A DNA stretch of 64,000 nt, from positions 109,802,001-109,866,000 of the forward strand of contig OX597817.1 in assembly GCA_951406725.2 (NCBI GenBank), written 5' to 3'. Positions within the stretch are counted from its first letter, which is position 1, and the number at the start of each line of letters is the position of its first letter. The notes under the pieces are model-generated. The model was not told the DNA's origin. It ran no database searches and was given only the letters and a program-made list of their open reading frames with translations. The position numbers were made by a program, and so were the translations under genes. Shown piece after piece: positions 6,580 to 41,600 of this stretch. Source of the DNA: Octopus vulgaris (taxonomy: Eukaryota).

Positions 6580-6641
6580 ATTGTGAAATTGTGATGTCGG
6601 TGTCTTCTTCCTGAAAGGCATCAACATCGCAATTTCACAAT
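6580..6641 (+). repeat. 62-nt hairpin (27-bp stem)
   Basis: attgtgaaattgtgatgtcggtgtctt pairs with aaggcatcaacatcgcaatttcacaat, with three G-U pairs and one mismatch on the + strand. Confidence 0.85.
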
Positions 6642-8144
6642 CCCTCATTTAAAAATTGATAATTCTTGCTTTTATAACGAAAAACATATACTGATCGAGA
6701 TAGGCCTAATTTGTTACGCTGTTTAACACCACCATTTGGGTCTGACCGCTTTTTATGGAGTCTACCCTGGGGAGAAATAAGTGTATTCACTACTTCCTAA
6801 TTCAGAAACTCTTGAGTTGTTTATTTCCTCCCATCCACATTCCATTCTCAAAGGTTCTGCAAAATTCAAGTGTGTTGTTTTTCTTCCTCTGACTGAGCGG
6901 TAAAAATATCCTTCATTAAATTGAATGCGCGCAGGCGTGCATATGGTGCGTGTGTGTGTGTGTGTGTGTTTAAGTAAGAATTCTAGAGTGAAATTCTTAT
7001 CTTCGTCCGATATGAATAGGCTGCTGTTTTTATCTATCAAATTCTGAAGTCGGAATATTGTAAAGTGCACTAATGCAAGGCAAATTGTTAGATTGATATT
7101 ACTACCTATGCAAAATTGTTGCTAAATCTACGTTACAGAAAATGCAGATAAAATTAGCAAAGAAATTGATACTTATTAACCGGGGAGCAGAATCTTTTAA
7201 AATGTAATATGAAATTGCTGATAACAAAGAGCAAGAATAGTTTGCGTGACAGAATACCCGCTTCTTCGATATCTATATTGTTAATAAACACACAAGCGTT
7301 TTATATAACTCTGTTCTCATACGTAACACAGAGCAAAATGCACCTGGCTTGCTATTTTTCCAATAAATATTTAGAAATAGAAATCCAATTGAAAATTATA
7401 GCAATCAATTTACAATAGAAAAACTTTAGTTTCTTTGAAAATTGAATTACAATATTAATAACATAATTCTATTCACACAGAGCAATATATTTTTAAGGAA
7501 ATATTCCTGATATTCATAACACACAAAACATTCTAGTTTCTCTATCTTCACTCTGTACATCTGTTTACAATGAGGCTTCGAAAACTTCAAATATCTAACT
7601 TATACGTATATTTTAAATGAATATTTAAATCTAAACCATCAATAATGCAAACTAATCCGAAGTTTGTTATATTTTGTACCAAACATAAAAGAAAATTTGT
7701 TTGCATGTATTCTTATTAATATGTTACCAATATCAGTTGAATGAAGCATTTTGTAGTGTGAACGGTAATTAAATACCTTAGAATTTCAGAGCAATGACAC
7801 ATCTGTGATATATGTGAATGTACCCCACCACACAGGCGCACATATATGTATATTGATATATATATATATATATATATATATATATATATATATATATATA
7901 TATATATATATATATATATATATTATATATATATGTATGTATGTATGTATGTGTGTGAGAGAGTATATACATGTGTGTGTCTATATATACATATATATAT
8001 ATATACAAAGTATGGGGGCTTAGTCCTAAGGTGATCTAAGCGAATAGGTACGGTAGGTAAGTGCTGTAACGGATTACTGGGACTCCAATGTTACAGCTGA
8101 GACTGTAGTTATGGAGCCATTGTAGATTTCCGATATAGCGGATA

Positions 8145-8375
8145 TATAATTGTTAAAGAGGACAGCAAGCATTAAGGCAAGGCAAACATCTCAAGTCATA
8201 TACATTATTATTACTGGAAAAAATTCAAAGTGTTACAGCTGTTTCTGGGATATCCCATACTTTGGGATAACCCAAAAACAGCTGTAAGACTTTGAATTAC
8301 TTCCAATAATAATAGTGTATATGACTTCAGATATTTGCCTTGCCTTAACGTTTGTTGTCCTCTTTAACAATTATA
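8145..8375. repeat. Foldback palindrome (~113-bp arms, ~5-nt loop) with a mirrored hammerhead 3' half; probable Penelope-like remnant
   Basis: The arms are reverse complements. tacagctgtttc (8234-8245) is the reverse complement of GAAACAGCTGTA, and the right arm has aaaacagctgta. Confidence 0.85.
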
Positions 8376-9479
8376 CACACACACACACACACACATATAA
8401 GTGTGTGTGTGTGTGTGTGTGAGTGTGTGTGTGTGCGTGCGTGCGTGATTGCATCTAAACTAGCGAATACTTTGAAGTACCTAAACATCATGGGTGTAAT
8501 TATCAGGATTTCAAATGGACACAGAGAAGCTTGAATATAGTTTTAAAAGATTATTCTTACTAATTTCAAATAATAACATATGACCAATTCTCAGGCAAAA
8601 AGTAATGAAATTCCAAATATATGAACAGCAAGAGAAATAAACAAATAGCTTTATTTCCCCAAAAATATGCAACACGATATATGTTCGAATATTTTACTAT
8701 CCTTGTGCAAGTTTATAATCATAAAGACAATCGTACAGGACATATAATTAATAGATTTATGCTTTCAGAATTATTAAGACCTTGAGGATAATCAAATTAA
8801 ATATGAAACAAAAGTAACAGATTAATTTTAAAACACGCCTTAAATATGTTCAGAAAAACTTTACATTCTAAGGGAAATATTTTGCAGATTAATCAAGTTT
8901 GAAACTTAGAATTTTGTTTTCTAAATTTTTAAAGTAATTGTAACTATACGGGTAGATACAGTTTGCCTGACGATCAGATTTGAGAACAGATAAGAAGATC
9001 CTATATGAAAGTTAATCAAAGAGGAGTGTTCTATGCAGATCGTATCGAAACATCCCTACTGAGGATAAGTTCATTAAACTTATGCTACGAGATTCGACCG
9101 AGTTTCAACAGTCAAATATCAATAAATCCAGGAATTCTTTATTCCCATACTAATCCAGTTGTCTTGTTCAGCTTCGCTAACAGCCTGCAAGAAATCGAGA
9201 CACAGTTTCATTATTCCATGACCTAGATTATACCTAAATAAAATCAATAAGATCTTTGAATTCATAGATTGCAAATAAAGCACAAAAGCATTCCTTAAAT
9301 GACCTAAATTCATAGTATGAAGGTCACCTCACTCAAAGTGACGAAATAAAAATCAGGATTTCAAAGTTGCCATACATTGTAAGCATCCTACAACCAAAGG
9401 AAACAAAGATACCATTGAGTCGAAAGCTCGATCCTCTCTATGATAATGTATTACGACAGTCAAAGACGGACAAAGAAAC

Positions 9480-38165: not shown

Positions 38166-38483
38166 TAGTAGCAATCCTAATTGTATGGGCTAACAGCGGT
38201 GGCGCTGTCTTTCTGGTATTTACTCTATATGATGGCTGGTGTGTGAATTTTACATTTGGCATGAAAATCCTCGTGCGCAGGTCGTTAACGCTAGGTAGAT
38301 GATTATATTGGCTACAATTCGAGTATTGTGGGTTCTGTAACATATTATATAGAGTACAAGGACTATTGTACTCGAGTATTTCTTTATATTATATTTAGTA
38401 TTGTATGTTCAGTATTGGTCTATATTGTTGTCATAGAGAATAAAACCTATATGAATACTTCCTGGTTTAATTTACCTTATGAT

Positions 38484-38616
38484 CATTATTATTATTATTA
38501 TTATTATTATTATTATTATTATTATTATTATTATTATTATTATTATTATTATTATTATCATTATTATTATTATTATTATTATTATTATTATTATTATTAT
38601 TATTATTATTATTATT
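38484..38616 (+). repeat. (ATT)n microsatellite
   Basis: Direct reading. Confidence 0.95.
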
Positions 38617-41600
38617 GCTGCTGCTATTGATGTTGCTGTTGTTGTTGCTGATACTGCTGCTGCTGTTGTTGTTTTATTGGAATGATTACATCTAAAATAA
38701 TTTTTTTCCTTCATTCATCGTTGGTGAACGTAGCCTTCAAGAACTGATGTCATCTGACAGTGACCCACGGTCATTAGGTATTCCTACCCTGAAGCGTAAC
38801 ACCCTTATGTTCCTGGGCCTTCAGTCAAATCCCTACTCAGCTTCACTTAGATTCCAAACTAGCTCCTTTCTTTTGTTCCGTAACCAACAAGAGGCGTGTT
38901 GCTATCCCACCTATAGTGCGCGCAACTGCGTTTTTCTTTCTTCTTCTCATGACGGTATACCATTCGCATACTGTTTGGCAAGGAATCCTATACAGTCAAT
39001 CAACATATGAAGAATGGATGCCTTATTCATAGAGGTAGATTTACAGATCCTTCAATGCGTCGAAAATACTTAAACTTAAATATATTCAATGCATCAATTT
39101 GATCAATTAAAACACTTGAAGGCGAGTGCCTCTGCAAAGCCTAGGTCCTATGACTGAAAGCAGTAAAGAATGTGTGTGCGTATGTGTGTGAAAAAGAAAT
39201 CTAACGCTAAAACATCAACAAAAGTCAATTAGATGTACACAATGAGTATATTAGATTGACGCAGGTGAGTGGAAAATCTCATGTTTTCTATAATGTTCTT
39301 CTTCAGGGAAAAGTTGAGAGGAGACAAATTAAAGAGAAACAGCAGTTTTAAATCTTTTGTGTAGAAACACTGGCTGTAACTGGTCTCTCTTTAATATTTC
39401 GGTCAACTTTTGTTTGAAGAAAGACTCTGTCTGGGACGTTGGGGCTTTCCACCCACCTCAGCAAGTTCACTGTGTTTTTTTGTTTATTTATAAATGTGTA
39501 TATGATATATATATATATATATATATATATATATATATATGACATTGATAACGAAAAGGAGAATGATTTATTCCCATCTATACAAAACGTCTTTTATTTA
39601 TTAAACAGTTTTCAACAGCATATATATATATATATATATATATATACTCTTTTATTTCGAATATCAAATATCATTTATACTTATATTTATTTCTTCTTTG
39701 ACTGTGCATTATCTCCACTCCAACATGTGGGTTTTTATATTAGACTGACGCTCAGTAAAAGTTTTAGATGAAAAAGTAAGAGTGGAAATTGTATGAGTAC
39801 AAATGCAACTATAAATATTTATATATTTAGTTTCTATTAATAGAAATATATTTATGTTGTATTTGTACTCATACGATACTATTCAGTTGTTTTACCAGAA
39901 TAAATTAATCTTAGGGATATAGTTTTACTATATTTGGGATTCGCTTCATATATGGACGTCTGACTGTCTAAATCCATTTAGAATGTATGTATAACGTCGT
40001 ATATCTTCAGTAAAAGATTAAATAATGGAATTGTTTCCAGCGTACGTATGCCATTAAATATGATGGATACTAAATTATTATAGATAAAACTTATTTTATT
40101 AACTATACTGAAGGCAAAGCAATCCAGTGAAAGAAAAATATATTAATAAATATGAACAGATAACAGATATATAAATTGATGGAGCGACGAATAAATTGAT
40201 GAACTTATAAGAAAATGTTTATAAATTGATATATATATCGTGATATAAAGAGAACAGAAAAGATAAATTGATGGAATGTCTTTTATCTCAAGAAAAAGCT
40301 TTTAGAGAAGTTTTAGTAGGTTATACAGATTATATTTCCTTCCAATATTAGAATAAGTAAATTTCAATCGAGCTAACAATGATTTGACCTCGAAGTTTTC
40401 GGCTATAGCTAAGAAATGGTGTACATACAAAGAAAATTTCATTATAGATTTTCTTTCTAACGACTAACAAATATTGATCAATATTTCTTCCATTTATGGG
40501 ACTTTTCCTTCATATGTTTGCGTTCACCGAACGCGTAAATCAATTCTTTTCTAAAGATATTCTTCGACGAAGTAAACATGCGTCAGCAGTTTTGTTGTTG
40601 TTGTTTTGTTTTGTTTTGTTTTTTCTCTTTTTGTTAATATTTTCTTAACTATATTGCGTTTACTCATGACAGAAAAATCACGTGGTGTCAAAAAATTAAA
40701 ATTGATGTCGTTTTACATCCATTTACTTTCATTTTCTGTTTCAAGCTATAAAAATATAGCTTAAAGGAAAAATAACTGATAAAATTTTCTGAATCTAATA
40801 TGATTAAAGGTATTAATGCAGCGAACACATTATTTGACGAAAATTGTTCCTTACAAACGTTTGAGGAATAATACATAGTTTTGCTTCAAGAACAACGTTC
40901 GAATTAAGCGGCAGGAAATATGAATTTCAAAAAGATCATTTATTGTACGTTGAAAAAATCTCCATGTTGAAAATAGCCAGAATACATTCATATATACATG
41001 CATACACACACACATACACACACACACTCACATACATACATGCAAACATACATATATGCATATATATATATATATATATATATTACAGTATAACGACAGC
41101 TTATGTATGTGTGTGCGTGCATACGTTTATTTACATATATATGTATATATATATATATATATATATATATATATGTGTGTGTGTGTGTGTGTGTGTGTGT
41201 GTGTGTGTATAAACGTATGCACGCCCAAACATACATATGTGTGTGTGTTAACTGTCGAAAAAGGTAGAAAATATGAAACCCACACAGCAAATATCCAGAA
41301 TTCTAACAAATAAGCTGTCGTTATACAGTAAAACTTACTTTTATTAGCATAAATTTATTGATTTCATTCGGCTGACGCAGTTTTTATTCTATAAGTCGTG
41401 TTAACTCGTTTGAATCGAACCAATAAACTACTGTTATTAAATTTATCGATCAGGAATTTAGTGCGAGAAAAAGGATGAAGCAAAGGATCGTAATGCGTTG
41501 AAGCCCCATGCACTTACTATTCTACATCGTCAGCTTCACTATGACCTACAAGTATTCTGCTTCACACAATGCGTGTTCAAGTGTTATACTTTTAATAACC

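Follow-up and report, generated by a model that had tools for sequence, protein, structure and literature searches.

Penelope-like elements (PLEs) that carry an endonuclease (EN+) are known to leave head-to-head inverted, 5'-truncated copies of their pseudo-long terminal repeats (pLTRs), with a tail at one end only, palindromes at the junctions and microsatellites as targets (Arkhipova et al. 2013, PMC3846280; Craig et al. 2021, PMC8557442). The mechanism that forms these copies has been called undefined (PMC8557442), and the palindromes at the inverted junctions have been read as self-priming (PMC3846280). The purified protein of the anole PLE Poseidon, a predicted dimer, cleaves and extends both DNA strands, cleaves AT-rich sequence and uses two reverse transcriptase (RT) start sites that bound the tail, and hammerhead cleavage is dispensable in vitro (Frangieh et al. 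2024, PMC11167929). [quoted passage not shown] In L1 twin priming (Ostertag and Kazazian 2001), the second target end primes internally on the same RNA and the two cDNAs are joined by microhomology, with deletions or duplications of only 1-10 bp (PMC10760644, PMC11702581). Here we analysed palindromes in a 64,000-nt stretch of the Octopus vulgaris genome (G000:C4:109802001-109866000), referred to as the window, and in the whole assembly (2.8 Gb, 227 contigs). We found that the main palindromes (8.1, 28.7 and 35.6 kb) consist of 3' ends, placed head to head, of PLE-type repeats that bear a hammerhead. They are 5'-truncated insertions whose arms start at two different fixed points of the element, and they were likely built in situ by twin priming.

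The window has a G+C content of 33% and abundant microsatellites, and its open reading frames (ORFs) of at least 120 aa are all short (at most 183 aa) and mostly microsatellite translations. A preliminary description had pointed out five palindromes, those at 6.6 and 41 kb being the weaker ones, and had ascribed to them one design, in which the symmetry axis is stem II of a hammerhead and both arms carry its GAAA motif. It proposed that one target-primed cDNA ends in stem II, folds back and serves as its own primer and template, so that the 5' half of the ribozyme is replaced by a mirror of the GAAA half and the ribozyme hairpin acts as a programmed fold-back primer. The long hairpins seeded in this way would be potential ADAR or Dicer substrates. 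The relevant features are listed below; junction and arm positions are given throughout relative to the G of the hammerhead GAAA.

8003 to 8144, minus strand: 3' tail of family A (about 140 nt), on the left arm only, ending against (TA)n; locus L031 is this window copy.
8145 to 8257, minus strand: left arm, family A, which starts at the tail boundary, covers the cleavage site, stem III and GAAA, and enters the 3' strand of stem II.
8246 to 8375, plus strand: right arm, family A, with part of the stem II 5' strand, the native loop (8258-8262), the 3' hammerhead half and body.
19220 to 19575, no strand assigned: head-to-head insertion of a fifth family, absent from the preliminary description; its axis is not stem II.
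28743 to 28931, minus strand: left arm, family B, without tail; its end, at about -20, lies towards the apex of an extended stem II.
28933 to 29121, plus strand: right arm, family B, starting at about -25, with GAAA, stem III and body.
29122 to 29174, plus strand: 3' tail of family B, on the right arm only, matching +178 to +224 of copies L018 and L024.
30614 to 30745, plus strand: complete type I hammerhead motif with a long stem II loop, in a non-inverted family D copy.
35582 to 35806, minus strand: left arm, family C, with a whole minimal A3-U8 hammerhead (35731-35696), reaching about 100 nt upstream of GAAA.
35802 to 35975, plus strand: right arm, family C, which begins about 48 nt upstream of GAAA and contains another whole, though decayed, hammerhead from 35831 (35831-35867).

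The palindromes at 8.1 kb (arms 8145-8257/8263-8375, 113 nt) and 28.7 kb (arms 28743-28931/28933-29121, 189 nt) were borne out, each with arms 89% complementary, and folding of their centres gave z -9.3 and z -7.5 against shuffles, for stretches that were preselected as palindromes. In these two the axis is indeed stem II, at the loop 8258-8262 and at the apex of the extended stem II 20-25 nt upstream of GAAA (-20/-25), respectively. The predicted anatomy also holds in both; in the window copy of family A, the 3' half is mirrored at the stem II loop, and this mirror takes the place of the 5' half. The remaining three of the five do not have this axis. The stretch 35582-35975 is an inverted pair, yet a gapped and decayed one, and each arm carries a whole minimal hammerhead. 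These arms keep both hammerhead halves, so nothing was replaced, and with ends at about -48 and -100 the family C copy is not a stem II pivot. The GAAA motif is exact on both arms only at 28.7 kb, and in the other four palindromes on one arm only.

At 6580-6641 we recovered the 62-nt hairpin (z -7.3 against shuffles), and at 41083-41331 two short inverted pieces flanking a microsatellite; the proposed membership in a hammerhead family did not hold for either. The stretches 6545-6700 and 41248-41420 each matched only themselves genome-wide (one candidate each, in a search that skips very common words, so that very old or very-common-word families could escape it), and neither 6580-6641 nor 41083-41331 gave a hammerhead descriptor match. 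On these grounds they were rejected as family members; we treated both as unlinked single-copy stretches and ascribed their GAAA-like words to chance. Family D has its complete type I hammerhead motif as described, with its core at 30618, GAAACAGCTGTA at 30730-30741 and a stem II loop of about 105 nt, in a copy spanning at least 29200 to about 30935. The motif of the 8-kb palindrome, found on the minus strand at 8245, is the same 12-mer. In the insertion at 19220-19575, the GAAA, the palindromic stem III and the tail are all on the long left arm only, and the right arm is short. A relative of this insertion, locus L188, has the same one-sided tail.

A first look through the genome gave 1962 candidates for family A (8.1 kb), 377 for family B (28.7 kb), 84 for family C (35.6 kb) and 788 for family D (30.6-kb hammerhead). 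Whole type I hammerhead motifs with a palindromic helix III were found in other copies of A, B and C, and in D. For family C, and for it alone among the four, tblastn linked the repeat to EN+ PLE coding sequence, with RT/GIY-YIG remnants directly upstream of the hammerhead (L078, L085, L087). The inverted, 5'-truncated head-to-head copies are themselves as expected of EN+ PLEs, and a target-site duplication is unreadable in the insertion flanks, which consist largely of (TA)n or (CA)n. The core of the family C hammerhead (loci L062-L090) has A3 in 27/29 and U8 in 29/29 motif hits at 29 other loci, in place of C3-G8, and its stem II has 2 bp; a similar A3-U8 motif is carried by the GIY-YIG element L213. 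In an Rfam scan, the 150 matches listed of 219 were all sub-threshold matches to microRNA families, mostly on microsatellites, and there was no hammerhead family among the matches listed, an uninformative outcome. The palindromic shape and the lack of ORFs would also suit miniature inverted-repeat transposable elements (MITEs) or other palindromic units that move whole. Each inverted copy has a junction of its own, however, with axes that vary from copy to copy, most copies of each family are non-palindromic, and family C copies sit downstream of RT/GIY-YIG remnants. With no fixed palindromic unit, a MITE or other DNA transposon was rejected, and we regard it as exceedingly improbable.

For family B, conclusions come from 30 similarity-selected loci, biased towards full-length arms, because the family is too diverged for exact 14-mers; its genome-wide inverted-copy pattern returned two loci, the window copy and one apparently unrelated microsatellite-rich match. 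In the inverted copies of family D identified here (L093/L096, L109/L112, L117), the junction lies hundreds of bases upstream of the ribozyme.

We then turned to the ends of the arms. For family A, the junction set was anchored on the 3' end to avoid selecting pivots; out of 73 inverted loci, it comprised the 50 listed ones, each of which was analysed. A clear tail, up to about 140 nt long, was present on one arm only in 48/50; one copy had a marginal 12-nt tail, one had no tail, and none had a tail on both arms. The window copies of A and B also have one-sided tails. Among 32 asymmetric family-A copies, after two ambiguous AT palindromes were dropped, the tail was on the 5'-shorter arm in 22 (one of them the marginal tail) and on the longer arm in 10.

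A young autonomous family, Y, was found by a GIY-YIG search and served as a test set. Many of its copies have an intact 781-aa frame with RT and GIY-YIG Pfam matches, the RT match lying just under the curated cut-off, and its terminal repeat carries a U3-A8 hammerhead motif. Two sets were used: 15 inversions (gap up to 500 nt, all examined), and 21 loci from a search anchored on the inverted tail, 12 of which are common to the first set and 9 additional (24 in total). In 15/15 inversions the end of one arm was at +82, whereas the second arm reached +122, and each of them ran into (TA)n. Read by hand, the tail was on the shorter arm in 8 and on the longer in 5, with 2 symmetric. A two-state single-nucleotide polymorphism (SNP) was common to both arms in 15/15 loci (9 A/A, 6 G/G), which indicates a single source for both arms. 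The young PLE copies at L223-L242 (e.g. G000:C5:1038200-1048199), many with intact 781-aa frames, also have an upstream ORF-like region and terminal repeats that are 99-100% identical, and are a good candidate for biochemistry.

These counts bear directly on the snap-back proposal. A target-primed cDNA that snaps back copies only its own content; the model therefore requires that the longer arm, the one with the loop, bear the tail, and the copied arm cannot reach further 3' than its template. Pooling families A and Y, we found the tail on the shorter arm in 30/45 asymmetric cases, including the 8.1-kb copy, which is the best example of the proposed design. There the loop is on the right arm, which is tail-less, has a mutated GAAA and terminates in (CA)n, and the 140-nt tail is on the loop-less left arm, the 5'-shorter one, which ends at about -8 to -11. 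The loop-less arm was thus not copied from the loop-bearing arm as it stands. Furthermore, some copies consist of an inverted tail without any duplicated body (2/21 Y loci, L267 and L269; 4/30 family-A loci, L032, L042, L049 and L052), that is, they duplicate nothing, contrary to snap-back. In 6 further of the 21 Y loci, the tail arm stops at +59 to +70, just past the inner start. On the other side, snap-back would account for the loop kept at the junctions of the 8.1-kb copy, L142 and L178, for the SNPs common to both arms, and for the 15/45 asymmetric cases, L142 and L178 among them, with the tail on the longer arm.

The genome was then searched for the mirrored GAAA/stem III 12-mer with a gap of 4-34 nt. 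The search returned 71 exact loci, against 0 for the control, with many different stem II sequences, and the junction type is therefore real and recurrent. Stem II pivots do recur across families, as snap-back would also have it. Nevertheless, the 50 family-A junctions are spread from +75 to about -270, and both arm ends lie in stem II in only 6/50, versus 17/50 in the AT-rich tract at +13 to +50. Family-A end rates per 100 nt at risk were 2.14 at +13 to +30 and 0.31 across stem III with the cleavage site; stem II had a rate of 1.58, and the stretch just upstream one of 1.02. The stem II rate was not significantly above the family-A mean (18 ends versus 14 expected, p=0.16). It did exceed the flanking segments (18 of 28 ends, p=0.03, with paired ends that are not independent), a point in favour of snap-back. 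In family Y, a hammerhead pivot was seen in 2/15 inversions, on an alternative small hairpin overlapping GAAA.

Palindromes in general were surveyed as well. The survey covered 1,064 kb and kept 72/104 palindromes, the 32 dropped being the centres of loci picked for holding a palindrome. The motif lay within 35 nt of the axis in 5/72 palindromes facing outward and in 2/72 facing inward, against a background of 15/2128 single-strand windows. In 534 kb of unselected DNA it was near the axis in 2/33 palindromes, both within the window and one of them the 19.3-kb case, which is not a mirror; outside the window (470 kb) the figure was 0/28. The strict motif misses decayed copies, including that at 28.7 kb, and the thresholds missed those at 35.6, 6.6 and 41 kb, so that the share is bounded only roughly. 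The terms "one design" and "programmed" were therefore too strong, given scattered junctions and so few copies with both ends in stem II. Programmed snap-back is not supported as a general route and is already contradicted as such by the tails on shorter arms, the tail-only copies, the low share of stem II junctions and the intact hammerheads at 35.6 kb; we consider it quite unlikely. Stem II junctions are a recurrent, real class, one hot spot among several in ordinary PLE-type insertions. The hammerhead hairpin is likely a favoured but non-obligatory meeting point, with a modest effect on stopping and joining.

In family Y, tail-less arms ended within the hammerhead (-24 to +5) in 9/24 loci, versus 3.6 expected (p=0.006, with ends entered by hand). 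At several of these loci, the partner arm consists of the tail plus up to about 25 nt only, which gives the hammerhead the look of a site for stopping, not for mirroring. Arm ends that lie upstream of the cleavage site point to an uncleaved template, in agreement with the dispensability of hammerhead cleavage in vitro (PMC11167929).

The process that we favour, twin priming, would run as follows. The endonuclease would cut both strands of an AT microsatellite. One DNA end would prime reverse transcription at the inner start site, and the other at an outer site of the same RNA that lies 40-140 nt further 3'. Of the two copies, the trailing one may stop in the tail, stall just past the inner site, or run into the body by displacement, and the two cDNA 3' ends would then be joined head to head via filler or short complementary stretches. 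Stopping and annealing would be favoured at stem II and at other hairpins or palindromes nearby, producing the pivot look in a minority of copies. The geometry of the arms, the asymmetry of the tails and the scatter of junctions were observed, and all of the enzymology in this model we infer. The two start sites bounding the tail and the extension of both strands in the anole system match the arm geometry here (PMC11167929). The accessible text of that study offers no account of inverted products, and joining of two primed cDNAs is our own proposal.

Self-priming could also take place on a free intermediate, which might be antisense RNA, as Arkhipova et al. 2013 suggested, or a hairpin cDNA that is likewise free. 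The endonuclease would then trim one or the other arm at the inner site, and the product would integrate. Such trimming could leave one tail on either side; the palindromes at inverted junctions were read in terms of self-priming (PMC3846280), and cuts in both strands near the ORF-pLTR junction are made by the anole enzyme (PMC11167929). This route needs extra steps, however, with exact trimming in 64/65 cases, and would not lead one to expect that tail-arm ends accumulate just beyond the inner start. At both termini the arms finish in TATA tracts that look like target sequence and run into (TA)n, as two priming events predict, and long filler between equally long arms (L139, L165) looks like end-joining. 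We therefore hold this explanation to be unlikely. Junctions L139, L165, L166, L173, L254 and L279 have 14-57 nt of filler or repeated templated pieces between the arms, a pattern that resembles polymerase theta-type end-joining. Template switching at the DNA level after insertion, at hairpin-forming sequence, would explain why junctions favour local palindromes and hairpins and why variants are common to both arms. It is at odds with arms that stop at two fixed element boundaries without duplication of flanking DNA, and with element sequence on one arm that the other lacks. The fixed, unequal arm termini largely refute this post-insertion fold-back, which was rejected as very improbable.

Several points weigh against twin priming. 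No intermediate was observed. The bias of tails towards the shorter arm is modest when compared with 50:50 (p=0.05 in family A, 0.036 pooled), and the cases with the tail on the longer arm, as well as the near-symmetric 28.7-kb copy with its tail on the slightly longer arm, fit snap-back equally. Junction microhomology is predicted equally by snap-back; it was rejected as a discriminator between the models, as were shared SNPs, which both predict. Passing the inner start would require strand displacement by the PLE RT, and twin priming itself has been called unvalidated for L1 (PMC10760644). Old family-A arm ends are blurred by later indels. In addition, families A, B and D had no linked RT or endonuclease ORF within flanks of 1.5-5 kb; either all copies seen are 5'-truncated, or these families are non-autonomous.

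When compared with known systems, the insertions would work like twin priming, yet they are not L1 events. As in L1, the 3'-most segment is inverted without duplication in L267, L269, L032, L042 and L049 (2/21 Y and 4/30 A loci overall). Unlike in L1, the start sites are both at fixed positions, and a long inverted duplication results because the trailing copy often runs beyond the inner one; the breakpoints do not abut, palindromic copies duplicating tens to hundreds of bases. Among PLEs, the head-to-head architecture and one-sided tails are already described; published EN+ PLE tails are 30-40 nt (PMC3846280, PMC8557442), compared with about 140 nt in family A. The accessible text of these two papers does not place junctions relative to a hammerhead, count tail-bearing arms or propose two primers. 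The ribozymes share the type I motif, the palindromic helix III and, in family Y, the U3-A8 core with those of Cervera and de la Pena, whereas the A3-U8 core of family C and stem II mirror junctions do not appear in the accessible text of that paper (PMC4209133). Our literature search found no stem II pivot, PLE twin priming or A3-U8 core, in a body of text that excluded most subscription papers and supplements (including the alignments of PMC4209133 and PMC11167929). Tandem retrozymes, the subject of a preprint (bioRxiv 10.64898/2026.07.22.740005), are not relevant to the junctions.

Two other features of the window were recorded. At 26549-27351 on the minus strand lies a broken RT remnant with several stops, 25-42% identical to residues 250-538 of the young PLE frame. 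At 33246-33414 / 33735-33903 there are inverted arms of 169 nt, 97% identical and 320 nt apart, low in complexity and with an arm end directly repeated; this pair looks like a recent local template-switch event.

To an architecture that was known, these data add a hot spot at the hammerhead, which was measured and is modest, and a hammerhead family with an A3-U8 core. The tail and arm counts turn the undefined mechanism of PLE inversion (PMC8557442) into a question of two primers versus one, and one tail per insertion, usually on the shorter arm, together with tail-only inversions and stalls at the inner start, argue against the published self-priming. Such insertions leave long hairpins in the genome. 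High editing has been described in octopus, as have an edited Penelope element in lizard and an edited palindromic repeat in frog (PMC5625713), and RNA editing of the arms is plausible by analogy. A further idea, which we rate as doubtful, is that the PLE hammerhead fold has a second use, as a place where reverse transcription stops and annealing occurs, and so determines the meeting point of two target-primed cDNAs made from one uncleaved RNA. If so, stem II would be retained for its effect on the shape of insertions, in addition to cleavage or in its stead, which would fit the dispensability of cleavage in vitro, the arm ends upstream of the cleavage site and the persistence of odd cores such as A3-U8 or the 105-nt loop II.

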